NCBI GenBank assembly: GCA_038153405.1 | Contig: JAYOYH010000054.1 | Location: 1 to 15,303 of the forward strand | Source of the DNA: Gemmatimonadota bacterium | GTDB taxonomy: Bacteria; Latescibacterota; UBA2968; UBA8231 | Length of the DNA stretch: 15,303 bases | Reading direction: 5' to 3' | Part shown: positions 423 through 15,131 of the stretch, one piece after another | Layout of the letters: the number at the start of each line of letters is the position of its first letter | How positions within the stretch are numbered: the stretch's first letter is position 1 | Program-made: the position numbers and the translations under genes | The notes under the pieces: model-generated | Database searches by the model: none | The model's input: the letters and a program-made list of their open reading frames with translations, nothing else | Told to the model about the DNA's origin: nothing

Positions 423-454
423 ATACTAACGATAATACCTGTTATCGTTAGTAT
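423..454. repeat. Perfect 13-bp inverted repeat with 6-bp spacer; candidate tyrosine-recombinase core site
   Basis: ATACTAACGATAA-tacctg-TTATCGTTAGTAT. The inverted repeat is directly visible. The inner ATAA-N6-TTAT geometry matches Xer/dif-type sites; the functional role is inferred. Confidence 0.6.
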
Positions 455-499: not shown

Positions 500-2098
500 T
501 TATGAAGTTAAGTGGTCTACCACTATCGGAAGGCTGACGGTAAAGGTCGACCCGCTACCGAGTTTGCTCTTTACGGAAATGTTCCCACCCAACAAGCGGG
601 ACAACCGTTGGCTTATAGCCAGCCCTAGGCCAGTTCCTTCTTCCCTTAACTTTCGCGAACTACTGCGCTGTTCGTATGGGCTAAAAATCCCTTCGATGTC
701 TTCGTCAGAAATGCCTATACCTGAATCAGAAATATTAAAGTTTACCCACTGTTGGCGCGGCTTAGGCTCGAACGAAGCCTCAATTATCACCTCTCCGTTT
801 TCAGTGAATTTGCAGGCATTCCCAATAATATTGATCAAGACTTGGCGCAGTTTGCCTGGATCAACTCTGATTGAAATTGCCTCGTCTGGCAAATTCACTA
901 TGAGCCGATTTTGTTTTCGCTCGGCCAAAATATGTGCTTCGGGTAAAATATCCTCTAAAAATTGTTTCAATACGAGGTTTTGGGGCGCTAAGTCGATATT
1001 CCCTGATTCTATTTTGCTTATGTCCAGCACGTCGTTAATTTGATAGAGTAAATTAAGCCCAGATTGCCGCACATGACCTATATATGTGGCAATCTCCTCA
1101 ACATTGGAAAAATCGCCTATATCTTCTAACTCTTCCAAGCACAGTTCACTATAGCCAATAATAGCATTGAGCGGCGTGCGTAATTCGTGGCTCATATTGG
1201 CCAAAAAGGTGGTTTTTGTATCATTCGCTTTGATTGCTATATCGAGAGCATTGGATAGTTCAAATGTCCGTTTTTCAACTGTTTCCTCTAATTCCTGCTT
1301 ATTTTCGTAAATCCTTTCTACAAAGAGAGAAAAGTGACTTCGCAAATCGTCGATTTCAGTTATGGGTGATTGAAAGGTAAATTCGGGCTTGGGGCCTAGT
1401 TCATCTTCGTCGATGGCTAAGCGCGTTTTATCGGCGAGCTGTTTTATGGGGACTGCAAGCGTGCTCGTTTGCATGCGCCAAGAGGCAAAAACAATTACCC
1501 CAAAACCTATGGTGACAACGCCTGTTAGAATGAAAAACTGCTTCCAAATCACCTCTTGCTCTTTTCTATTGTCCTGAGAAATGAGCTCAATTTTTTCTTC
1601 TGTATCTCCAAACATATCTACCAACCGCTCTGTTGCCACCAAATAGAGTTTCTGTTGATCTTTTGGGGCTGGAACGCCTTGGGAATTCCCTGTAGATACA
1701 GTTGTAGATAATTGGATAGTTCGAGTGATTAGCTTAAGATCGCTTTCGAAAATCGGATCAACCAGTTTATACTGTGCGTTTGAATATGTCCGTAGACGCG
1801 AAAGACACTCTAAGGATTTTTCAACGTAGCCATAGGTTGCATTGGCTAAATATGTATTGCCGCCAGACAAGACGAGGTCTGCGCAGAGCAAGGCATTTGA
1901 GACATAGCCTCCGCATTCCTGTGTAAGTCGTAGCGCTTCCTGATCTTTTAAGGTTTTTTCTTGGAAGTTTATACCAAATAACAGGCGCCAAACAACTAGG
2001 CCAATGCCGATCAACCCGAATAAACACAGCATGAGATTGTGCCGCGCTAAATAAAAACCAATCTGAACGTGCGATGAGTCAGGTTTAGTTTTTGGCAA
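500..2098 (-). CDS. Membrane-bound sensor histidine kinase (2 TM, extracytoplasmic domain, HAMP, HisKA, HATPase_c), no receiver domain
   Basis: H-box FLANMSHELRTPLNAIIGY, N-box QVLINIIGNACKFT, G1 DSGIGI, G2 GTGLGL. Hydrophobic segments LMLCLFGLIGIGLVVW and FFILTGVVTIGFGVIVFASW. Start uncertain: TTG at 2098 or ATG at 2032. Confidence 0.93.
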   Translation of the reverse strand: MPKTKPDSSHVQIGFYLARHNLMLCLFGLIGIGLVVWRLLFGINFQEKTLKDQEALRLTQECGGYVSNALLCADLVLSGGNTYLANATYGYVEKSLECLSRLRTYSNAQYKLVDPIFESDLKLITRTIQLSTTVSTGNSQGVPAPKDQQKLYLVATERLVDMFGDTEEKIELISQDNRKEQEVIWKQFFILTGVVTIGFGVIVFASWRMQTSTLAVPIKQLADKTRLAIDEDELGPKPEFTFQSPITEIDDLRSHFSLFVERIYENKQELEETVEKRTFELSNALDIAIKANDTKTTFLANMSHELRTPLNAIIGYSELCLEELEDIGDFSNVEEIATYIGHVRQSGLNLLYQINDVLDISKIESGNIDLAPQNLVLKQFLEDILPEAHILAERKQNRLIVNLPDEAISIRVDPGKLRQVLINIIGNACKFTENGEVIIEASFEPKPRQQWVNFNISDSGIGISDEDIEGIFSPYEQRSSSRKLREEGTGLGLAISQRLSRLLGGNISVKSKLGSGSTFTVSLPIVVDHLTS

Positions 2099-2221
2099 AG
2101 AGATGATCTCGATATTTTACAAAGTACGTGCTATAAAGTGCGCATTGTAGAGTTGGCAAGTCCGCCGTTATAACGGTTGATTGGCACCTTTTATCGACTT
2201 ATCGACCTTTAAATGCATTTA

Positions 2222-2578
2222 CTAGCGGAAGCGTTCAATTTTTTCGATGAGTGATTCGATTATGATGGGCTTCGTCGTAAAGTCATCACACCCTGAAGCC
2301 AGTGCTGCAGTGCGGTCTGCTTCTAAAGCATGGGCTGTGACGGCAATTACGGGGATCGCACTCGTCTGGGAATTTGCCTTGAGCCTCCGCGTTGCTTCTA
2401 AGCCGTCTATGCCCGGCAGGCCTATATCCATAAGGATTACGTTGAACGGTGTTTCTAACACCAATTCGATGCCGTCCTCGGCTGAGTTCGCACAGGTGAC
2501 CGTATAGCCGCGCCTCAGCAGACGCTTTCTCAACATTTCAGTGTTGACAGGATTATCCTCTACCAATAACAGATGCAT
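2222..2578 (-). CDS. Single-domain response regulator (CheY/DivK-like receiver)
   Basis: 118 aa with acidic pocket LLVEDN, phosphoacceptor ILMDIGLPGIDG, conserved T in VTAHA and KP in TKPI; no output domain. Confidence 0.95.
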   Translation of the reverse strand: MHLLLVEDNPVNTEMLRKRLLRRGYTVTCANSAEDGIELVLETPFNVILMDIGLPGIDGLEATRRLKANSQTSAIPVIAVTAHALEADRTAALASGCDDFTTKPIIIESLIEKIERFR

Positions 2579-3865: not shown

Positions 3866-3882
3866 TTTTATTTTTTCACATT

Positions 3883-3910
3883 CATTTACATAATTTTACA
3901 TATGTGTTTT
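3883..3910 (-). other. Degenerate dif-like site (11-6-11)
   Basis: Minus strand AAAACACATAT-GTAAAA-TTATGTAAATG. Right arm is identical to that of the 6843-6870 site; left arm is degenerate. Confidence 0.35.
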
Positions 3911-3920
3911 TTTTAAATTG

Positions 3921-3942
3921 GAGGATTACTTATTTGATCCTC
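3921..3942. terminator. Weak hairpin between the convergent recombinase and leuS genes
   Basis: GAGGAT(TA)...(TG)ATCCTC stem abutting the leuS stop codon; U-tract is poor. Confidence 0.3.
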
Positions 3943-6834
3943 TTAATTTCCCACGACAATATTCACAATTCGCCCAGGTACCACAATAAAACGCTTTATT
4001 ACAGCACTCTCGGGAATGAATTTTCGCACGTTTTCCATAGCGAGAACGCGTGTTTTTAAGTCTTCTTCGGATATATCTACCGGCGTTTCTATTTGACCGC
4101 GCATTTTGCCGTTAACCTGTATAGGCAGCGTTATCGTGTCCTCAGCCGCCAGGCCCTCATCGGCAATGGGCCATGCTCTATGTGCCAAAACGCCCTCGCC
4201 CCAACCCGCTCTCTGCCACAGTTCTTCGGCTATATGAGGAGCCATTGGGTTGAGTAAGGCAAGAAACGTTTCGGCGATTTCCGCCGGTATTGAATCCGTG
4301 CCAACGAGTTGGTTATTCCACTCGATCATGGCCGCAATGGCTGTATTAAATCGTAGATGTTCGATGTGATCGGTTACGCGTAGGATCGTCTGGTGCATTT
4401 GCTTGCGCTGATCGCCGGTTGCTTCTCCGGCAATTTTAACGGCCCCCTCAATATCGATAAAGTTGCGCCAAACGCGCTGCAAAAAGCGCTGCATGCCGCG
4501 AATGCCTTCCATACTCCAAGGCGTGCTGGCCTCCAACGGACCCATATACATCTCGTAGAGGCGCAGCGTATCGACGCCAAACTCTTCCCCCACTTCCTCA
4601 GGAGGGAGGCCATTCTTGTAGCGCTTGCCCATCTTGCCGGCTGTGCGCACGAGGCGAGCTCCACTTTCTCGGTGATATCCTTCGCCATCGCGCAGTTCCA
4701 CCTGGCGAATATCCACATAGACACCGCGCTCGTCTTGAAACGCATCCGCTGTAATCATGCCCTGGTTAAATAGCTTCTTAAACGGCTCCGGAGTGGAAAC
4801 GAAGCCCAGATCGTACAGCACCTTATGCCAGAAGCGCGCATAGAGCAGATGCAATACAGCGTGCTCAGCCCCCCCCACATACAGGTCGACGGGCATGAAG
4901 TATTGCTCTGCATGCTCACCGCAAAATGCGCTATCGTTATTCGGGTCAATAAAGCGGAGATAATACCAGCACGAACCCGCCCACTGAGGCATTACGTTGA
5001 GTTCGCGCTCGGCTATCGTTCCATCCTCTAATGCTAGGGATCGCCAGGCTTCCCCCGCCCGATAAAGAGGCGGTTGCACGGGACGATCGGGATCATCCGA
5101 AGTCTCCGGGCGAAAATCATCCATTTCGGGTAGCACAACGGGAGGATCAATCGCCACTGTATATCCATCTGGGTGGGCTGCGAGGGGAAAAGGTTCACCC
5201 CAATAGCGCTGTCGAGAAAAAATCCAATCGCGCAGTTTATAGTTGACTGCTTTCTTTCCCAATCCCTTAGCTTCCAAAAGTTCGGTAATCTTTGCCTTGG
5301 CCTCAGATGTAGCCAGCCCATTAATGTCAAAATCACTTGGGGCGTTCTCGGACGGCGAATTGATGCTGGAGCCCTGTCCACTATAGCAGCGATCTCTGCC
5401 GTCGCCGCCCTCTACAACGTCGACAATAGGCAAGCCATATTTCTCGGCAAATTCGAAATCGCGCTCATCGTGAGCGGGAACAGCCATGATCGCCCCGGAG
5501 CCATAATCCATGCTGACGTAATCGGCGACAAAAACGGGAATCGTTGCTCCATTGACGGGATTGCGTGCGTAAAAACCACTAAATACCCCCGTCTTTTCCC
5601 GCTCTTCTCTATCTGCGGCCGTTTTCTGTGCGGCCTGTTCCCCATAGCTCTCCAACGCACTGCGAATTGTTTGCTGTGGGTCATTGCCGCGCCAGCGTTC
5701 GTCCGTTTCGGCTGGCCAAGTCTCAGGAACATTATACATCTCGCTGGGGGAAGAAACGAGCGGATGCTGGGGAGCAAGGACCATAAACGTAGCGCCAAAT
5801 AGCGTATCGGGTCGAGTTGTGTATACGCGCAGCGAAGAGTGCACATCGTTTGTGTCGGATTTCAGTACATCAAATAACACCTCGGCACCTTCACTGCGAC
5901 CAATCCAATTGGCCTGCATGAGCTTTATCGCAACGGGCCAATCTAGCGTGAAGGGCTCTTGGTCATTTCCCTGGGCCAGCGGCGCTTCTAAATCTTCGAG
6001 CAGGCGGTCGGCATAAGCGGTTATGCGCATAATCCACTGCTTTAATGGGCGCTTGTATACGGGGAAATTTCCGCGTTCGCTCTTACCGTCGTTAGTGACT
6101 TCTTCGTTGGCCAGCACTGTGCCCAGACCAGGGCACCAGTTTACGACGATTTCGTCCTGGTAGGCTAATCGATAACCGTTTAAAACCGCCTGCTGTTGGA
6201 CCGTGCTGAGATCATTCCATGGGGTATCCACATCCCCAGCTAATACGCGGCAGTCTTCTGAGCTATAGGTGCGCTTACCGGCGGCGAAGGATTCGGCGAG
6301 TTTAGTAATGGGAAGCGCCTTGCCTTTAATGGGTCGCCCATTGGCGTCGGTCCATTCGTGATCAGCGTCGAAATAACTCGCGTAAAGGCGGGCAAAAATC
6401 CACTGCGTCCAGCGATAGTACTCTTCGCTGGAAGTGGCAATTTCGCGATCCCAATCATAGCCCAGTCCTAGGAACTGTAACTGCGCTCGAATCGCATTGA
6501 TGTTGTCTTCCGTTACGATGGCCGGATGAATATTGTGTTCTATGGCGTATTGCTCAGTCGGCAGGCCAAAGCTGTCAAAGCCCATTGGGTGCAAGACATT
6601 GAACCCCTGCATACGCTTAAATCGGCTGTAAATATCGCTGGCAATGTAGCCCTTTGGATGCCCAATATGCAGTCCGGCCCCGCTGGGATAGGGAAACATA
6701 TCGAGGACATAGCACTTGGGTTTTTCTGGATCAAACCCCTCGTCTTCGGGCCCCTGCGTGCGGAAGGTCTTTTGGTCCAACCAAAAGGTTCGCCACTTCT
6801 CTTCGATTTCTTGGAAATTGTATTGCCCACTCAT
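3943..6834 (-). CDS. leuS: Leucine--tRNA ligase
   Basis: 963 aa. MFPYPSGAGLHIGH (HIGH motif), editing domain YTTRPDTLFGATF and GAIMAVPAHDERD, DWIFSRQRYWGEP, YVGGAEHAVLHLLYARFW, KMGKR at the KMSKS position, C-terminal QVNGKMRG and VPGRIVNIV. Confidence 0.98.
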   Translation of the reverse strand: MSGQYNFQEIEEKWRTFWLDQKTFRTQGPEDEGFDPEKPKCYVLDMFPYPSGAGLHIGHPKGYIASDIYSRFKRMQGFNVLHPMGFDSFGLPTEQYAIEHNIHPAIVTEDNINAIRAQLQFLGLGYDWDREIATSSEEYYRWTQWIFARLYASYFDADHEWTDANGRPIKGKALPITKLAESFAAGKRTYSSEDCRVLAGDVDTPWNDLSTVQQQAVLNGYRLAYQDEIVVNWCPGLGTVLANEEVTNDGKSERGNFPVYKRPLKQWIMRITAYADRLLEDLEAPLAQGNDQEPFTLDWPVAIKLMQANWIGRSEGAEVLFDVLKSDTNDVHSSLRVYTTRPDTLFGATFMVLAPQHPLVSSPSEMYNVPETWPAETDERWRGNDPQQTIRSALESYGEQAAQKTAADREEREKTGVFSGFYARNPVNGATIPVFVADYVSMDYGSGAIMAVPAHDERDFEFAEKYGLPIVDVVEGGDGRDRCYSGQGSSINSPSENAPSDFDINGLATSEAKAKITELLEAKGLGKKAVNYKLRDWIFSRQRYWGEPFPLAAHPDGYTVAIDPPVVLPEMDDFRPETSDDPDRPVQPPLYRAGEAWRSLALEDGTIAERELNVMPQWAGSCWYYLRFIDPNNDSAFCGEHAEQYFMPVDLYVGGAEHAVLHLLYARFWHKVLYDLGFVSTPEPFKKLFNQGMITADAFQDERGVYVDIRQVELRDGEGYHRESGARLVRTAGKMGKRYKNGLPPEEVGEEFGVDTLRLYEMYMGPLEASTPWSMEGIRGMQRFLQRVWRNFIDIEGAVKIAGEATGDQRKQMHQTILRVTDHIEHLRFNTAIAAMIEWNNQLVGTDSIPAEIAETFLALLNPMAPHIAEELWQRAGWGEGVLAHRAWPIADEGLAAEDTITLPIQVNGKMRGQIETPVDISEEDLKTRVLAMENVRKFIPESAVIKRFIVVPGRIVNIVVGN

Positions 6835-6842
6835 AGTTTTTC

Positions 6843-6870
6843 CATTTACATAAATATATTTATATGAATA
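6843..6870 (-). other. Candidate dif site (XerC/XerD-type recombination site)
   Basis: Minus strand TATTCATATAA-ATATAT-TTATGTAAATG, compared by eye with the Firmicutes-type dif ACTTCCTATAA-TATATA-TTATGTAAACT: 8/11 and 9/11 arm identity with exact 6-bp spacing. Intergenic and AT-rich. Confidence 0.5.
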
Positions 6871-6893: not shown

Positions 6894-8186
6894 TTAAGGG
6901 TATAACCTTTGCAGCATGCGCGGGAATGGGATCGTCTCCCGAACGTGCTTTAATCCGCAAAGCCAGGCTACGACCCGCTCAATCCCCATGCCAAAGCCGG
7001 CGTGGGGGACCGTGCCATAACGACGCAGATCGGTATACCACTGAAAAGCTTCCGGGGGCAGTTCGTGCTCGTTAATTTTTCGCTCGAGAACGGCCAATTC
7101 ATCTTCCCTCTGGCCTCCCCCGATAATCTCACCATAGCCCTCAGGAGCCAGCATATCTACACAAAGCGCCAAGCGACTATCGTCGGGATCTTCTTTCATG
7201 TAAAACGCCTTGACATCAAGTGGATAGCGATGCACTAGTATCGGTGCATCATATTGTTCTGAAAGGAGCGTTTCGTCGTCTCCCCCCAAATCGGCCCCCC
7301 ACTCGATATCGCTGCCCAAAGCTCTCAGTTGTACTAGCGCTTCGTCATAGGAAAGTCGGGGGAAAGGCAGGCTGATTTTTTCCAGTTTATCAATATCTCG
7401 CTCGAGCACTTTAAGCTCTTCCCGACGGCGCTCAAGGACCCGCTGCACGATATAGTAAACAAACTCCTCGGCAATCCGCATATCTCCGTCTAAATCGCAG
7501 TACGCCATTTCTGGCTCGATCATCCAAAACTCCGTTAGATGACGTCGAGTTTTAGACTTCTCTGCGCGAAAGGTTGGGCCAAAGCAATAAACATTGCCAA
7601 AGGCCATAGCCGCCGCTTCCATATAGAGCTGGCCACTTTGGGTCAGATAGGCTTTCTGATCAAAGTAGTCCGTTTCAAAAAGCGTCGAAGTTCCTTCGCA
7701 GGCGGCCGGCGTAAAAATGGGCGCATCGATAAGGGTAAAATCGCGCTCTTCCATGAAGTCCCGACACGCTTTACAGATTTCGCTGCGGACTTTGAGTATG
7801 GCATGAGGACGCGAAGAGCGCAGCCAGAGGTGTCGATGGTCAAGCAGGAAGGATACCCCGTGTTCTTTGGGCGTAATGGGATACTCGCCGCTTTCGCCCA
7901 CGAGTTCGACGCGGACAACGCCGAGCTCAAAACCAATCGGCGAGCGCTCGTCCTTGCGCACCACCCCCGAAACGACAAGGGATGATTCCTGCTGAAGCTG
8001 CGAGCACCGTTCAAATACATCGGGCTCTACGTCGCCCTTAAAAACGACACACTGGATAATACCGCTGCCGTCGCGCAGCTGTATGAAGTGCAACTTACCA
8101 CTCGATCGCTTGTTGTACACCCAACCGCAAAGCTGGACCTCGCAACTTTCATACTTTCCGATGTCTGCAATGCGCACTCGTTCCAT
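6894..8186 (-). CDS. asnS: Asparagine--tRNA ligase
   Basis: OB-fold [31 protein letters not shown], motif 2 [35 protein letters not shown], motif 3 [18 protein letters not shown] upstream. Confidence 0.97.
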
Positions 8187-8300: not shown

Positions 8301-10373
8301 TTACTTGTCGATAAGTGCCTTATGGCTAAGTCGCATCTTGCCGCCGGTATCAATCTCGAGGACCTTGACCTGTATGGTATCGCCCTCGGAAACGATATCT
8401 TCGACCTTTTCAACGCGGCGATGAGCCATCTCAGAAATGTGTAACAGGCCTTCCTTGCCCGGTAGAATCTCGACAAAGGCGCCAAACGGCATAATGCGCT
8501 TTACCGTGCCGCGATATTCTTTGCCGATCTCCGCTTCCGCCGTAATCGCTTCGATCATGCGACGCGCCTCTTCGGCGGGTGCAGCCTCAACGGACGACAG
8601 GGTTATCGTACCGTCGTCATCGACGTTTACGGTGGCACCGGTCTTTTCGATCTCGCGAATCATCTTGCCACCTGGTCCGATAACGGCACCAATTTTGGAC
8701 ACGGGAATCTTGATATACTCGATGCGCGGTGCCCAGCGCGATAACTCGCTGCGCGATTGGCCGATCGTAGCATTCATAATATCAATGATGTGCTTGCGTC
8801 CGGCCTTGGCCCGTTCGAGGGCAAGCTGGAGGATATCAAAGCGAATCCCCTGGATTTTTATATCCATCTGAATGGCGGTAATGCCATCGTCAGTACCGGC
8901 CACCTTGAGATCCATATCGCCGAGGAAATCTTCCGCCCCCTGAATATCGGTGAGCAATTCCCACTCATCGCCCTCCATCACGAGGCCGACGCCGGCACCA
9001 CAAACGGCTGATTTGACCGGGATACCGGCATCCATCAGCGCCATCGAACAGCCACAGACTGTAGCCATCGAAGAAGAGCTATTCGACTCGGTAATATCGG
9101 ATACCAAGCGGATCGTATAAGGAAACGAATCGACCGTTGGTATAACCGGCTCAATGGCGCGTTCGGCCAGGTGCCCATGACCGATATCGCGACGCCCTGG
9201 ACCGCGTTCAAAACGCACTTCGCCCACGCTGTAGGCGGGGAAGTTGTAGTCCAAGTAATAGGATTTAAAGCTCTTGCCGCGCAAATCATCGACCAGGCGT
9301 TCATCGAGCTTGGTTCCCAGGGTGGCCACGCATAGCGCCTGCGTTTGCCCGCGCGTAAACAGCGCCGATCCATGCGTGCGCGGCAACACCTGATTTTCGC
9401 ATGTGACCTGACGGACCTCGTCGAGAGCTCTGCCATCAATGCGCCGCTTTTCCTTGATAATCATGGTGCGCATATCGGATTTGACGAGCTCGTAGACGGC
9501 GTCGCCAATTGCCTTGTCGGATTCGGGAAAGCGTTCGGCCAACGCCGCTTTTGTATCGGCCGTAAGTGCACTGATCAACTCATCGCGCTCTTCCTTGACC
9601 TTTGTGCGGTTGGCCTCTTTAACCCGCTCCGCACCGAACTCAGCCACGGCGGCAATCAGCTCTTCGTTGACCGGTTCCGGCTCTAAAACGAGCTTGGCCT
9701 TGCCGACGGCTGCGACCAATTCATTCTGAAAGGACACCAGTTGGCGAATGGACTCATGACCGAACTTCAGCGCATCAACGAGTTCCTCTTCGGAAACTTC
9801 GTGGGCGCCGCCCTCAACGCTGGCGATCGAATCCTCAGTGCCGGAAACAATCAGGTCCATATCGCTGTCTTCGAGCTGAGTATGGGTTGGGTTAATTACA
9901 AACTCGCCGTTTATCCTTCCCACGCGCACGGCCCCCATTGGGCCGGCAAAGGGTATGTCGGATACGCACAGGGCCGCCGACGCCCCCAGCATGCCCAATA
10001 CGTCGGCATCGTTTTCTCCGTCCGAGGAAAGGATCGAAATATACACCTGTATCTCGTAGGGAAACTTCTTGGGAAACATCGGACGTATCTGGTGGTCGGT
10101 CAGGCGCGCGCTCAGCGTCTCCTTTTCGGAAGGGCGACTTTCGCGCTTGAATATATTGCCCGGAATGCGACCACTTGCGTAGGCTTTTTCGCGATAGTCG
10201 ACGATCAGTGGGAGAAATCCGCGATCTTCAGGGGTACTGGTGCGACATGCCGTGACGAGGACTACGGTTTCGCCGTATTGAATCCACACAGCGCCATTGG
10301 CCTGCTTGGCAATACGCCCCGTTTCAAAGGATAGCGTGCGGCCACCCAATTGGGTTTCAAACTTTTGACTCAT
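8301..10373 (-). CDS. pnp: Polyribonucleotide nucleotidyltransferase (PNPase)
   Basis: 690 aa. ETGRIAKQANGAV, RIDGR, LPRTHGSALFTRGQTQ, GDMDLKVAG, KH domain IGAVIGPGGKMIREI, S1 domain FGAFVEILPGKEGLLHISE. Lies downstream of rpsO. Confidence 0.98.
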   Translation of the reverse strand: MSQKFETQLGGRTLSFETGRIAKQANGAVWIQYGETVVLVTACRTSTPEDRGFLPLIVDYREKAYASGRIPGNIFKRESRPSEKETLSARLTDHQIRPMFPKKFPYEIQVYISILSSDGENDADVLGMLGASAALCVSDIPFAGPMGAVRVGRINGEFVINPTHTQLEDSDMDLIVSGTEDSIASVEGGAHEVSEEELVDALKFGHESIRQLVSFQNELVAAVGKAKLVLEPEPVNEELIAAVAEFGAERVKEANRTKVKEERDELISALTADTKAALAERFPESDKAIGDAVYELVKSDMRTMIIKEKRRIDGRALDEVRQVTCENQVLPRTHGSALFTRGQTQALCVATLGTKLDERLVDDLRGKSFKSYYLDYNFPAYSVGEVRFERGPGRRDIGHGHLAERAIEPVIPTVDSFPYTIRLVSDITESNSSSSMATVCGCSMALMDAGIPVKSAVCGAGVGLVMEGDEWELLTDIQGAEDFLGDMDLKVAGTDDGITAIQMDIKIQGIRFDILQLALERAKAGRKHIIDIMNATIGQSRSELSRWAPRIEYIKIPVSKIGAVIGPGGKMIREIEKTGATVNVDDDGTITLSSVEAAPAEEARRMIEAITAEAEIGKEYRGTVKRIMPFGAFVEILPGKEGLLHISEMAHRRVEKVEDIVSEGDTIQVKVLEIDTGGKMRLSHKALIDK

Positions 10374-10402
10374 TATTAAACTCTCGTTTCGAATAAATTA
10401 AC

Positions 10403-10669
10403 TCAGCGCCTCAGGCCCAACTCTTTGATCATTTCCGCGTATGCTTCTGGATTCTTGCGCTGAAAATAGGCCTGCAACCTACGACGCTTGCCGATCAGCT
10501 TGAGCAGTCCACGGCGCGAGCCAAAGTCCTTCTTCTGCACGCGCAGGTGCTCGGTAAGGTTGTTGATGCGCTCGGTGAGAATGGCAATTTGTGCAGGGGC
10601 CGCACCCGACCCCTCTTCCTTGCCAAACTTTTCAACTATTTCCTTCGTTTTCTCTGCAGTTATAGACAC
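10403..10669 (-). CDS. rpsO: 30S ribosomal protein S15
   Basis: 88 aa with [16 protein letters not shown]...[20 protein letters not shown]...LGLRR. GTG start with GGAGG RBS. Confidence 0.98.
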
Positions 10670-10694
10670 GGTTACCTTCCTCCATCCTGATGAG

Positions 10695-11117
10695 TTATTC
10701 TTCTCTGCATTTGGTCATGAGTTGTCGCGTTCGCCGTATATCGTCAGCGATTTGCTCCTTTAGCTGCTCTGCGGATGCAAAGGCCTTTTCGGGCCGCAAA
10801 AAATCGGTCAGTTCGACGCGTAGATGACGCCCATAAATATCTTCAAAAAAATCAATTATGTGAAGTTCTAAGATGGCCTGGCCATCCGATTTAAACGTCG
10901 GCCGCCGTCCCCAATTGGCTACGGCGGCGTAGGCGACGTCCCCTTCGATACAGACGGAAGCAGCATATACGCCCAATGCGCGGTCAACAAGACCGTCGCT
11001 CCCATCGTCCACGCGCACATTAGCGGTGGGAAAGCCGATCTGGCGTCCGCGTCCATCGCCGCGGATCACTTGCCCGGCAAGAAGCAGCGCGCGGCCGTCT
11101 ACAGAGGGCAGCGCCAT
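10695..11117 (-). CDS. Monofunctional riboflavin kinase (C-terminal domain of RibF only)
   Basis: [61 protein letters not shown] at 11117 overlaps the truB stop (TGATG), giving 140 aa. Confidence 0.9.
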
Positions 11118-12034
11118 CAATGGACACCGGCCCATTGGCCGGTATTTAATACGACCGTGGGGTGCAAATAGCCCTCTTCCAAACGCCCCATCCCATAGAG
11201 CAACCCACTGGAGTCAAATACCGCGCAATCGCCCACCTGTCGGTTAATTTCGACGGGCACGACGTTGCCATGCTCAAAACGCTGCAGATCGCTGTCTATA
11301 CTCAGTTCGATGTGCTGAACCGCGCCGAGGGCCATACGCGTGCAATAGAATTGGTCAGCCAGCGTTCCCTCTTCAACATGGCGTTCGATCTGGGCGAGCG
11401 TCAGCGCATGTTCTACGCCCATCGCCCCAATGGCCGTGCGCCGTAGTCCGGACAGATGCGCTCCACAACCCAATTTATTTCCCAAATCGCGCGCCAATGA
11501 GCGAATATAGGTTCCCTTAGAACAGTGGACGGCCACTTCGAGATGGGGAAAGGCGAAGTCTAAAATGCTGAAATCGTCGATCCGCACGGTGCGCGCCTGT
11601 AGCGGAGTCTCTCGCCCGCTGCGCGCCAACTTATGACTGCGCACGCCCGCCACTTTTACCGCAGAATAAGCAGGAGGGACCTGCTGTATTTCGCCGAGAA
11701 ATTGTTCGGCGCATTCCTCGAGCATTGCCAGCGAAATATCCCCTTGGAAATCCGTGCTTTCCACTGCTCCTTCGGCATCGTCCGTAGTGCTGGTAGCCCC
11801 CAGTGTTATAGTGGCCCGATACTGCTTGTCGGCGGCCGTTAACCAAGGGTTGAGCCGGGTGTAATTACCGATGCACAGGACCATCAATCCCGTGGCCATT
11901 GGGTCCAGCGTGCCGCAGTGACCAATCCGCCGCATGCCCAGCAGTCGCCGCAGTGCCGCCACGACGTCGTGCGAGGTGGGCCCCTGCTCTTTGTCGACGA
12001 GCAGCAACCCCGTTTGCCCGTTGCTACTGCCCAT
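11117..12034 (-). CDS. truB: tRNA pseudouridine(55) synthase
   Basis: LLVDKEQGPTSHDVV, GHCGTLDPMATG (catalytic Asp), QVPPAYSAVKV, CSKGTYIRSLARDLG, LRRT. Start placed at ATG 12034, overlapping the rbfA end; the ORF track starts at 12058. Confidence 0.96.
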   Translation of the reverse strand: MGSSNGQTGLLLVDKEQGPTSHDVVAALRRLLGMRRIGHCGTLDPMATGLMVLCIGNYTRLNPWLTAADKQYRATITLGATSTTDDAEGAVESTDFQGDISLAMLEECAEQFLGEIQQVPPAYSAVKVAGVRSHKLARSGRETPLQARTVRIDDFSILDFAFPHLEVAVHCSKGTYIRSLARDLGNKLGCGAHLSGLRRTAIGAMGVEHALTLAQIERHVEEGTLADQFYCTRMALGAVQHIELSIDSDLQRFEHGNVVPVEINRQVGDCAVFDSSGLLYGMGRLEEGYLHPTVVLNTGQWAGVH

Positions 12035-12380
12035 TCTCGGCAACGCCCAGCTCATCAATCAGCGACAGCACGCGCGCAGCGCGCTCGGCTGTCTGGTCGT
12101 ATTCCACGCGAAATTCGGGGGCATAACGCAGGTGGATTCGCTGTGCGACCTCACTGCGTAAATGTCCCGAAGCCTTGCGCAGGGCTTTTAACGCCGAGCG
12201 CTTTTCCTCATCGTCGCCGATTAGGCTAATGTAAACCGTGGCGATACTCAGATCTTTCGTCACTGCGACATCGCAAATATTGACCCCTTGCACGCGAGGA
12301 TCTTTCATGCGCTTAACGATATCGCTCACTTCGCGCAGCATTTGTCCCTGAATCCTGCCCAATCGCTGTGGAGAGGCCAT
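12024..12380 (-). CDS. rbfA: Ribosome-binding factor A
   Basis: 118 aa with KDPRV, VTKDLSIATVY, ASGHLRSEVAQRIHLRYAPEFRVEYD; canonical position between infB and truB. Confidence 0.96.
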   Translation of the reverse strand: MASPQRLGRIQGQMLREVSDIVKRMKDPRVQGVNICDVAVTKDLSIATVYISLIGDDEEKRSALKALRKASGHLRSEVAQRIHLRYAPEFRVEYDQTAERAARVLSLIDELGVAENGQ

Positions 12381-12383
12381 GGC

Positions 12384-12665
12384 CTAGTACACCTCCATAT
12401 CGTAGGCAACCAATTCGATGCGCAAATCTTTCTCTAACAAATTAACCACTTTCGAGAGCACTTCGTTGGCATGCCGCACCTGATTGCTAACCGTTACAAT
12501 GCCCAGCGATGCTCTTTGCCACAACTCGTTATGATCGACCTCGGCTACGGCCACATTAAAGGCACTGCGAATTCTATCGACGAGGCTTTTTACGACGCGC
12601 CTCTTATCTTTTAGCGAGCTACTTTCCAGTAGATAGAGCTCGATATGACAGCCCATTACGATCAC
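12384..12665 (-). CDS. DUF503 (YlxP-like) protein
   Basis: 93 aa with SLKDKRRVVKSL...FNVAVAEVDHNELWQRASLG; typical position between infB and rbfA. GTG start. Confidence 0.9.
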   Translation of the reverse strand: MIVMGCHIELYLLESSSLKDKRRVVKSLVDRIRSAFNVAVAEVDHNELWQRASLGIVTVSNQVRHANEVLSKVVNLLEKDLRIELVAYDMEVY

Positions 12666-12683
12666 GCGAGTCAGACGTTCTTC

Positions 12684-15131
12684 TTATAGCGTACGCACGG
12701 TTTCGACCATGACGAGCGCTTGTATGATATCGCCTTCCTGAATGGCGTTAAAGCCGTCAATTCCGATACCGCACTCAAAGCCTTCATTGACCTCGCGCAC
12801 ATCGTCTTTGAAGCGCCGCAGGGAGGCGATAGAACCGGTAAATACGGCCTCGCCATCGCGCGTCACGCGCACCTGATTATTGCGAGTAATCCGTCCATTT
12901 TGCACCATGCACCCGGCAATCGTGCCCGCCCGAGAAGACGAGAAAACCTGACGCACTTCAGCACTGCCGACGACCTGCTCATCGAGGGAGGGGGTCAGAA
13001 GGCCTGACAGTGCGGCCCGAACCTCTTCGACGACTTCGTAGATTACTTTATAATTGCGAATTTCCACCCCTTCAAATTGGGCCATTTCCCGCGTGGCAGG
13101 TTCTGTCTGCACGTGAAAGCCCAAAATGATGGCATGGGAAGCCGAGGCCAATAGCACGTCTGACTCAGAAATGGCGCCCACGCCACTGTGAATTACGTTG
13201 ACCCGCACTTCATCATGGGTAATTCCGCCCAATTCCTGGGCAATGGCTTCGACCGAACCGTCCACATCGCCCTTGACTATAACGCGTAGCTCTTTTACGT
13301 GACCCTGCTGTATTTGGTCGTGCAGGTCGCTCAGGGTAACAGAGCGCATGCGACGGTGGTCTTGCTCGCGCTTGATGAGCTGGCGACGCAGGCTGAGTTC
13401 TTTCCCCTCGCGCTCGGAACGGGTGACGGCAAAGGTATCTCCAGCCTGGGGCACGCCCGGCAAACCCAGTACTTGTACAGGGGTGGATGGGCCCGCTTCT
13501 TTGACTCGCTCGCCGAGCTCATTCATCAACGCGCGAACCCTGCTACTGTATACCCCCGTTATAAAGGGATCACCTTCGCGCAGTGTGCCCTCTTGCACCA
13601 GTACGGTGGCAACGGGACCGCGGCCCTTGTCCAACTTCGCCTCGATAATCGTCCCGCGCGCCATTTTATCGGGGACCGCTTTCAATTCTAACAGCTCCGA
13701 TTCGAGCATGAGAACTTCCAGCAGCTGATCTATCGACTGGCCCGTTTTTGCAGAAATTCCTACACAGGGAACCTTGCCGCCCCATTCTTCGACTAGTACA
13801 TCGCGCTCGGCCAGTTCGCGCTTGATCTTGTCGATATCGGCAGTGGGCAGATCGATCTTGTTGATGGCCACGACAATGGGCACCTGCGCTGCGCGCGCGT
13901 GATCTATAGCCTCGATCGTTTGCGGCATAACGCTGTCGTCAGCGGCAACGACGAGAATGACTATGTCGGTGACGCGCGAACCGCGCGCGCGCATAGCGGT
14001 GAAAGCCGCGTGGCCAGGCGTATCCAAAAAAGTCACGGTGCCGCCATCGGGAAGAGCCACCGAATAAGCGCCAATGTGCTGCGTAATGCCTCCCGATTCG
14101 CCGGCGGCTACATTGGCTTTACGCAGATGGTCTAATAGGGACGTTTTGCCGTGATCGACGTGTCCCATAACCGTGACGACCGGGGAACGGGGTTCGGGAT
14201 TGCCGACCTCTTCCTCTTCCTGCAGGTCGTCAATTTCAACTTCTTCTTCCTCATCAACGGCAACGACGGTGTAGCCAAACTCATCGGCGACCGTCTGCAT
14301 GGTGTCCATATCGAGGCGCTGGTTAATGGTAGCCATGACCCCGAGTTGCAAACAGATGCCGATGACTTCATTTGGTTTGGCTCCAAGTTGCTCAGCAAAC
14401 TGTCCAAGCGTTATGAACTCGCTGATTTTAAGTTCTCTATTCTCCTGCTCTTCGCCCCCTTCATCTTCCCGCCCGCCGCGATCATACCGCCGGCGCACGC
14501 GCCCCTCGTTGAGCTGGGTAAGGGTACGACGCAGGTTGTCTTGGACTTCTTTAGCGTCAACCGTAGCACCGCCGCCACCGCCACCGCGACGCCGCTTAGC
14601 TCCCCCTCGGCGCCTACCTCCGCGATCATCGACTGGAGGTGCTGTGGAACGGGCCGTAACCTCGCGCTTCTCCGTCAGTTCTTCGCGCACCCCCTGAACG
14701 GGGTCGCCCTCGCGCTTTCCGCGACGCTTACTTCTCTTGCGCACCCCGTCTTCCTTTTCGGGTACGGGCGCGTTCACAGGCGCGTTCCCAGATCCGCCTC
14801 CACTCCGCCCACCACCGGCCGGCGCACCGCCTTCTCGACGCCGTGCTCCGCCCGCACTGGGACGGCTGCTGGCAGCGGCAGCGGGGGCCTTTTCGGCAAC
14901 CGGCACATCGCTTTGCTTGCGGCTCTCTTCTTTGGCCTTCTGCCGCTTGACCTCTTCAATCGAGCTCTGCTTTTCTTCCTGGATTTTCCGCGTGATAGCG
15001 CCGAGCATTTCCTCGCTGACTACGCTCATATGACTTTTGACTTCAAAGTTCATGTCCTTGAGCATAGAAATCAGGGCATCGCTAGAAAGTTTTTGCTCTT
15101 TTGCTACCTGATATACCCTGCGCTTTTCCAA
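12684..15131 (-). CDS. infB: Translation initiation factor IF-2
   Basis: 815 aa. N-terminal RVYQVAKE, G1 [19 protein letters not shown]3 DTPGH, G4 [15 protein letters not shown]-terminal [21 protein letters not shown] start with AGGGAG RBS. Confidence 0.98.

Follow-up and report, generated by a model that had tools for sequence, protein, structure and literature searches.

We examine the leucine–tRNA synthetase gene leuS in a 15,303-nucleotide contig from a Gemmatimonadota bacterium (JAYOYH010000054.1 of assembly GCA_038153405.1, placed by GTDB in Latescibacterota), all of which is referred to here as the window, together with two short repeats that flank the gene beside a tyrosine recombinase. 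The original prediction was that leuS had arrived or moved between two dif-like sites as a cassette mobilized by Xer recombinases, and had then been locked in as the sites diverged. We find that leuS was inherited as a core gene and is no mobile cassette. The explanation we favor, and judge probable from the sequence comparisons below, is that the two leuS sites belong to a set of eight dif-like sequences, likely bound by XerC/XerD, which likely make up a nested, inward-facing array at the replication terminus, and that leuS was inherited in its place between two of them.

The repeats are as first described: an identical 11-mer at 3883-3893 and 6843-6853, with 3881-3906 and 6841-6866 matching at 20 of 26 bases. 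Read on the minus strand, both sites have an 11-bp arm, a 6-bp spacer, and another 11-bp arm (3883-3910 for site 1, 6843-6870 for site 2). The spacers, GTAAAA and ATATAT, mismatch at 3 of 6 positions, and site 1 has one core change in its left arm. Taken alone this pair is only modestly above chance, the 11-mer being shared in 269 of 20,000 shuffles of the two AT-rich gaps (p about 0.013). Genome-wide the 11-mer has 4 copies where 0.42-0.44 would be expected, and three of these copies have a dif-like context. The decisive evidence is conservation. Among 44 recombinase loci with a complete leuS, dif-like sites are found on both sides of the gene in 22, on the 3′ side only in 15, on the 5′ side only in 3, and on neither side in 4; in all 22 two-sided loci, most of them from one sponge-associated clade, the sites are in direct repeat. 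Because they are conserved in this way the repeats around leuS are non-random, and a chance match was rejected. Spacers across leuS differ in 22/22 loci, at 2-6 positions (mean 4.1), and this divergence likely protects leuS from excision, which preserves the locking part of the original prediction without the arrival. Nor is the pair special to leuS, as similar sites separate other core-gene blocks. Site 1 is closer to a site on another contig of the assembly, C20:8179-8206 (23/28), the presumed left-hand inner site, than it is to site 2 (20/28).

The source genome (G000, 4.86 Mb) has 8 dif-like sites, all on the G-rich strand, found by a core search and again, exactly the same 8, by a degenerate pattern; the reversed control pattern finds 0 in this genome. 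Three are on the window contig (C54), two in the window and one beside miaA. Contig C20 has three, beside mutL, between two prs genes, and between ychF and rqcH-valS, and contig C66 has two, around mcrBC and transporters. A site profile iterated on relatives and built from 114 sites scores these eight at 23.5-33.6 and the next match at 18.6. Local shuffles of 1.15 Mb gave 0 matches at score 14 against 148 real matches, a number that is not an independent count because the profile was trained on those loci. In the 11-6-11 layout, the conserved XerD-type arm, and the ATAA/TTAT core these sequences are dif sites, and they are intergenic and located at the terminus as judged by skew and the position of gyrA. 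In number they are not, with 8 in the source genome and 5-6 in each of five single-contig genomes, where dif is single-copy.

The arrangement of the sites is most clearly seen in those five single-contig relatives. In 5/5, all of the 5-6 sites are within 29-44 kb around the recombinase point, and the left sites are plus and the right sites minus, so that they face inward with the XerD-type arm first. A class-wide listing has the same order of polarity on every contig with both orientations (mostly from genus g14), and at scores of at least 17 the count is 54/54 left sites plus and 65/65 right sites minus (119/119 sites, from 41/56 loci). The usual gene order is prs, hprK, mutL, recombinase, then head-on leuS, asnS, pnp, and infB, and the sites are kept at orthologous junctions across genera with proteins 43-78% identical. 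They are also kept in genomes without the adjacent recombinase (G022, G024, and outgroups). GC skew switches from plus to minus at the recombinase locus in G042 and G009, and a gyrA-like gene, which we take as a proxy for the origin, is about half a genome away. The recombinase locus is most likely the replication terminus.

The recombinase next to leuS probably acts on a site other than the two that flank the gene. Its relatives number 56 loci at 56-71% identity, mostly in Latescibacterota, and the six catalytic residues are kept in at least 55/56 sequences. The window protein scores well below model cut-offs for XerC (133 bits against 335), XerD (125 against 330), XerS (78 against 267), and XerA (113 against 220), and has a weak match to XerH at E = 7e-6. 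It is neither XerC nor XerD. The source genome has a separate XerD, at 344 bits against the cut-off of 329.6, a second Xer-like paralog with 259.5 bits on the XerD model, and a gene that we take to be FtsK-like from a motif. The candidate target is a perfect 13-6-13 palindrome at 423-454, which travels with the recombinase gene. It is present in 52/56 recombinase loci, in most cases 150-200 bp ahead of the gene, and among 40 relatives it is found in 11/14 with the gene and 0/26 without (10 of the family, 16 outgroup). The core, ATAA-6-TTAT, is as in tyrosine-recombinase sites, and pooled GC skew goes from +0.058 to -0.093 across it. Degenerate extra palindromes in G021 were counted against this assignment. 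Close relatives (loci L035-L090) differ in which way the 6-bp spacer of the palindrome points with respect to the recombinase gene, and both orientations are found.

A different assignment would make the adjacent recombinase an Xer acting on all the 28-mers, in the manner of the XerS/XerH single-recombinase systems, with the palindrome as a regulatory operator. The gene is indeed at the center of the array with a site following its stop in most loci, and the palindrome is in the promoter region and is found elsewhere without the recombinase. The gene is also linked to a symmetric site at the terminus, as in those systems; it is not an ortholog of XerS, XerH, or XerA, and it does not replace XerCD in the genome, XerD-model matches being present in 41/41 genomes. 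The 28-mers are asymmetric, with an XerD-type arm like the pdif sites in Table 1 of PMC13141974, as far as the available part of that source goes, and they persist where the gene is missing (G022, G024, G082, G083, and outgroups). With the recombinase-type core of the palindrome, and a palindrome of different sequence and the same geometry beside the Cre-like genes taken up next, we regard this assignment as unlikely.

The terminus slot is exchangeable between two recombinases. In the single-contig genomes G022 and G024 the adjacent recombinase is missing and a Cre-like recombinase is encoded between leuS and mutL, between dif-like sites. The only solved matches of the Cre-like protein are Cre and its variants (E = 2e-19), and it is 27% identical to the window recombinase over 160 residues. 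G082 and G083, congeners of G022, also have the Cre-like gene and lack the window-type recombinase. Thus, the Cre-like gene is in the slot in 3/3 genomes of genus g16 plus G024, and 5/5 other genomes of the genus of G024 carry the window-type recombinase; tree support of 0.81 bears on whether this swap had one origin or two. In all four genomes the Cre-like gene has ahead of it an imperfect 13-6-13 palindrome with a sequence of its own (judged by eye in genus g16), and two Cre-like copies elsewhere are preceded by a near-perfect one. Because the Cre-like family has scattered copies, with 8 matches in G022, the terminus position could be opportunistic. That Cre/loxP can replace XerCD/dif in Escherichia coli is described in the available parts of PMC2680272 and PMC2800217. 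A tentative and rather doubtful extension of the favored explanation is a terminus with two tiers, in which the exchangeable solo recombinase and its lox-like palindrome would resolve dimers, and the XerCD/dif sites, thereby freed, would have multiplied among essential genes into a polarized array that gates FtsK and restricts rearrangements to symmetric inversions about the terminus. If true, it would be a natural version of the dif-to-loxP swap, with the slot filled by two barely related enzymes.

The segment containing mutL and the recombinase is found in both orientations among loci, and has inverted repeatedly. On a tree of 25 loci (16 of orientation A and 9 of B, with L053 dropped as it has no mutL) there are 6 changes of orientation against a shuffled-label mean of 7.6, and three sister groups 97-98% identical differ in segment orientation. 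DNA alignments break on the inner 28-mers in 5/5 pairs, which indirectly supports recombination of the sites by XerCD. Strand-switch joints at the inner sites are seen in 2/4 runs, in contigs from two other studies, and none of the joints listed from the run contigs skips leuS. These runs are for the relative L048, not for the window. Spacers are identical in 6/32 inner inverted pairs versus 0/46 direct neighbors, where the inner pairs include two that are mis-paired (the L042 inner site has a 7-bp spacer and L045 has no inner site), and in 20 sponge-clade loci the inner-pair spacers are more alike than in permuted pairs (p 0.012). Farther out, the order miaA-site-rqcH-valS in G019, G042, and G043 versus ychF-site-rqcH in G000, G002, G004, G006, and G017 indicates a second inversion, at an outer pair.

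A mechanism that would produce such an array can be set out in five steps. First, the ancestor would have had asnS-leuS beside one dif. Second, a cassette of the palindrome and a solo recombinase would have settled at the center, where it likely provides or backs up chromosome-dimer resolution, by analogy to Cre/loxP engineered in place of dif. Third, XerCD recombination of inverted sites on opposite arms would invert DNA symmetrically about the terminus, an event that would keep gene direction, be tolerated, and make new sites of the same inward polarity. Fourth, recombination of direct repeats on the same arm would delete essential blocks such as leuS, and it is likely suppressed because the spacers mismatch and because FtsK bound for the terminus would meet the XerC arm first. 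Activation by FtsK was assayed from the XerD side in the available part of PMC2673442, and inward XerD arms would therefore be hidden from terminus-bound FtsK. Fifth, each site is likely kept because it would still be able to recombine with its counterpart on the sister chromosome, so that chromosomes are resolved or unlinked. We also considered whether the array makes up for a lack of topoisomerase IV and rejected this, since a second GyrA/ParC-family gene is present in 5/5 genomes.

The outer sites might instead be polar roadblocks, bound by XerCD, that gate FtsK or replication forks like Ter/Tus and organize the terminus, the inversions being accidental. The near-strict polarity and the retention of sites at orthologous junctions would suit that function, as would the sites up to 100 kb from the center in G003, beyond the roughly 10-kb activity zone of dif given in the available text of PMC2680272, and the halting of FtsK by XerCD-dif without cleavage in that of PMC2800217. 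In the same portion of PMC2800217 the orientation of full dif sites makes no difference, polarity is explained as well by birth through terminus-spanning inversion, and the gene order implies recombination of the outer pairs too; we find the roadblock explanation improbable.

The cassette of the original prediction has less in its favor. It can point to the direct-repeat sites on both sides of leuS in half of the loci, to several LeuRS types in the class, including a long type in G027 where its congeners have a shorter one in the same asnS-linked position, to G030, where asnS is followed by dif and leuS is elsewhere, and to three strongly supported tree conflicts. It can also point to the clean empty allele that was to be looked for, which exists in G017, where a single site comes 35 bp after the asnS stop and is followed by the recombinase, an unrelated LeuRS being encoded 670 kb from the locus. 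On the pnp tree, however, G017 branches within the family, and the absence of leuS from its locus is therefore a later loss and not the ancestral condition. Loss after replacement, possibly by Xer excision, fits G017, and arrival of leuS as a cassette does not. The evidence for vertical inheritance is broad. GC content and third-position GC content (GC3) of leuS match those of asnS; asnS precedes leuS in 22/29 loci across families, including family f2; and in the outgroup genomes G040 and G027 asnS-leuS is 2-3 kb from a single dif-like site, so that leuS adjoins the ancestral dif. The asnS-leuS gap of G027 is 17 bp with no site in it. In 38-genome trees leuS shares 10 strong splits with the recombinase, 11 with pnp, and 15 with mutL; apart from the three conflicts, its tree largely agrees with theirs. 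Among 72,556 plasmids there is no LeuRS or recombinase match of at least 60% identity, and a plasmid origin of either gene was rejected at best matches of about 32% (recombinase) and about 49% (leuS). We consider arrival as a cassette quite improbable. Lower still we place the idea that the sites have no function today and are neutral scars left by earlier integrations and inversions, an idea which takes in the absence of sites from some lineages and the cargo between direct sites in G028 and the mcrBC genes between the C66 sites, and which has to contend with both arms being conserved at the same gene junctions across genera and with the empty local shuffles.

Outside the asnS-linked position, unrelated LeuRS types are found at L030 (G005), L031 (G017), and L027-L029 (family f3), and leuS has been replaced repeatedly in this class. 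The LeuRS tree built to trace the long type has no outside taxa and excludes G012, G031, G032, G038, G040, and the partial G002 and G008. L038 (G015:C1:1157979-1158532) has a tandem partial duplication of the leuS 3′ end beside the inner site. At the leuS-pnp junction there is no asnS in L046, L049, and L084, with the site kept in L046 and L049.

A number of observations pull against the favored explanation of an inherited leuS within an inward-facing XerCD array. Weak plus sites (score 13-15) are found right of the recombinase in L073, L075, L078, and L080, a weak minus site is on the left arm of G009, and direct repeats surround the Cre-like gene in G024. No site reaches score 17 in 15/56 loci, and the array is therefore dispensable in some lineages. 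Much of the sample is one sponge-associated genus, and at a distance from the locus GC skew becomes weak or irregular. In the source genome the arms are on separate contigs (C20 and C54) with C66 unplaced, for which reason we infer its mirror array from the relatives, with C20 as the left arm. For the inversions, spacers are non-identical in 26/32 inner pairs, and no inversion joint was found in five runs near-identical to G042 (X1, X2, X3, X18, and X19), which are contigs from which rare forms are dropped and of which X1 and X18 may be the source; fast phase variation was rejected on these runs. From these two results flipping is slow or rare, and with strand switches in contigs of other studies and none in the five near-identical runs, flips look fixed within species. 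All 3 of the strongly supported tree conflicts involve leuS and are within the sponge-associated genus, where some local leuS exchange may have occurred. Two extra perfect palindromes in G015 lack a neighboring recombinase gene, and the exact palindrome is also found on 5 viral contigs, with neither recombinase in the flanks examined; a phage origin of the palindrome was rejected on those flanks. In the available part of PMC2800217, XerCD-dif halts E. coli FtsK whichever side it comes from, which complicates the fourth step. The mechanism is weakest in accounting for the retention of distant sites.

Table 1. Features of the window and the next site of the array, in order of position.
Feature	Position	Strand	Remarks
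Perfect 13-6-13 palindrome	423..454	.	Sole copy in genome; candidate target of adjacent recombinase; at GC-skew switch
Sensor histidine kinase	500-2098	minus	GC 0.43, GC3 0.44
Response regulator	2222-2578	minus	Lower-GC block 500..2578 shared with histidine kinase
Family-specific tyrosine recombinase, 322 aa	2897..3865	plus	Catalytic R-K-H-R-H-Y intact; vertically inherited
Dif-like site 1	3883..3910	minus	Right-hand inner site of array
leuS, 963 aa	3943..6834	minus	TIGR00396 above cut-off; only leuS found in assembly
Dif-like site 2	6843..6870	minus	Inside 59-bp asnS/leuS gap; direct repeat of site 1
asnS	6894..8186	minus	Ancestral neighbor of leuS
pnp-to-infB core block	8301..15131	minus	Right arm; pnp identified by library scan
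Next array site past window	C54:24112-24139		Beside miaA

Within the core block of Table 1, the genes we take to be rpsO, ribF, truB, rbfA, and infB were recognized from their translations with no library scan. In the source genome, and likewise in G004, the kinase and regulator pair is inserted cargo that separates the palindrome from the recombinase. At 2601-2663, between the response regulator and the recombinase, a 27-bp sequence is directly repeated in tandem, with part of a third copy.

Other cargo is found around the array. An oligopeptide ABC operon at C20:265-6384 (L001), between mutL and the center, is central-segment cargo and is also present in G002. At C66:11998-18643 (L003), mcrB-mcrC, a DASS transporter, and a DMT transporter are between two direct-repeat sites, and this block with a site recurs in G002, G004, G017, G042, and G043. 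At L153:8673-17944 (G028, family f3) two direct-repeat sites 9 kb apart have accessory genes between them, resembling the Xer-exploiting mobile elements (IMEX). In outgroup families f2, f3, and f4 the dif-like site has an HTH_17/MerR-like protein of 140-220 aa encoded directly next to it (L145:17074-17742, L173:12594-13217, L147:15225-15653, and L153:17962-18438, all but L153 by library scan), a possible terminus-binding factor. Contigs end about 20-300 bp from the inner site at L044:22, L060:49, L065:10939, L007:4407, and L021:295, and the end of L021, from G019, resembles a transposase gene abutting the site.

The usual expectation for a bacterial chromosome is a single dif site, since additional copies put essential DNA at risk of deletion. 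Here one family keeps 5-8 dif-like sites between leuS, valS, infB, mutL, and other core genes, in near-strict polarity. Dif-like sites serve as breakpoints of terminus-centered inversions, which gives symmetric inversions a site-specific origin. The array is a natural test of whether spacer mismatch and FtsK direction silence direct-repeat dif sites, and the recombinase with its 13-6-13 palindrome, along with the Cre-like alternative, are candidate new pairs of recombinase and site. In the literature, with subscription journals mostly uncovered, we found no account of Xer/dif or a tyrosine recombinase in Latescibacterota, nor of a mirrored terminal array.

Compared with known systems, the sites are most like XerCD/dif as described in the available parts of PMC2673442, PMC2731167, and PMC3025954, being 28 bp in an 11-6-11 layout with a conserved XerD-type arm and a variable XerC-type arm, intergenic, low in GC, and at a skew switch, and the source genome has XerD, a second Xer-like gene, and a putative FtsK gene. 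They are unlike it in that the norm is one site per chromosome, and here there are 5-8 conserved sites among core genes in mirror polarity; what could be consulted of PMC3025954 gives a unique dif per chromosome, with two near the skew shift in some Vibrio. The pdif sites of Acinetobacter, from the portions available of PMC13141974 and PMC12907356, also come as many XerC/D sites with inversion between inverted sites with matching spacers, and the central segment here is formally a D module with content swapped between lineages. In those portions pdif modules normally alternate as C and D, hold accessory genes, and are carried by plasmids or islands apart from the main dif, and chromosomal dif clusters of Acinetobacter (PMC12907356) likewise hold accessory genes away from it, whereas here same-arm sites are all direct, the blocks consist of core genes passed down vertically, and the array surrounds the terminus. 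The sites flanking leuS are not inversely oriented with C/D alternation as pdif modules are (22/22 direct), the central segment alone being so, nor does the leuS module recur in varied plasmid and chromosomal contexts among the 72,556 plasmids.

IMEX, such as the gonococcal genetic island in the available part of PMC5357621, carry their DNA between a dif and a directly repeated degenerate dif, and this DNA resists excision. leuS is bounded in the same way, but what lies between the sites is native in composition and phylogeny; foreign, patchy cargo and an empty ancestral state are both lacking, as leuS is vertical and G017 is derived. XerS/difSL, XerH/difH, and XerL, in what is available of PMC5357621 and 10.1101/2021.09.12.459815, similarly have one tyrosine recombinase gene by a near-symmetric site at the terminus. 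Those modules are described there as occurring instead of XerCD, whereas here XerD, an XerC-like gene, and dif-like sites coexist with the recombinase, the layout of the site is 13-6-13, and a Cre-like gene can occupy the slot. A further parallel to that slot is the engineered Cre/loxP system of E. coli, in which, by the accessible portions of PMC2680272 and PMC2800217, a Cre-type recombinase and a symmetric terminus site resolve dimers without FtsK activation; the arrangement here would be a natural one, with the recombinase and its palindrome as a putative resolver.

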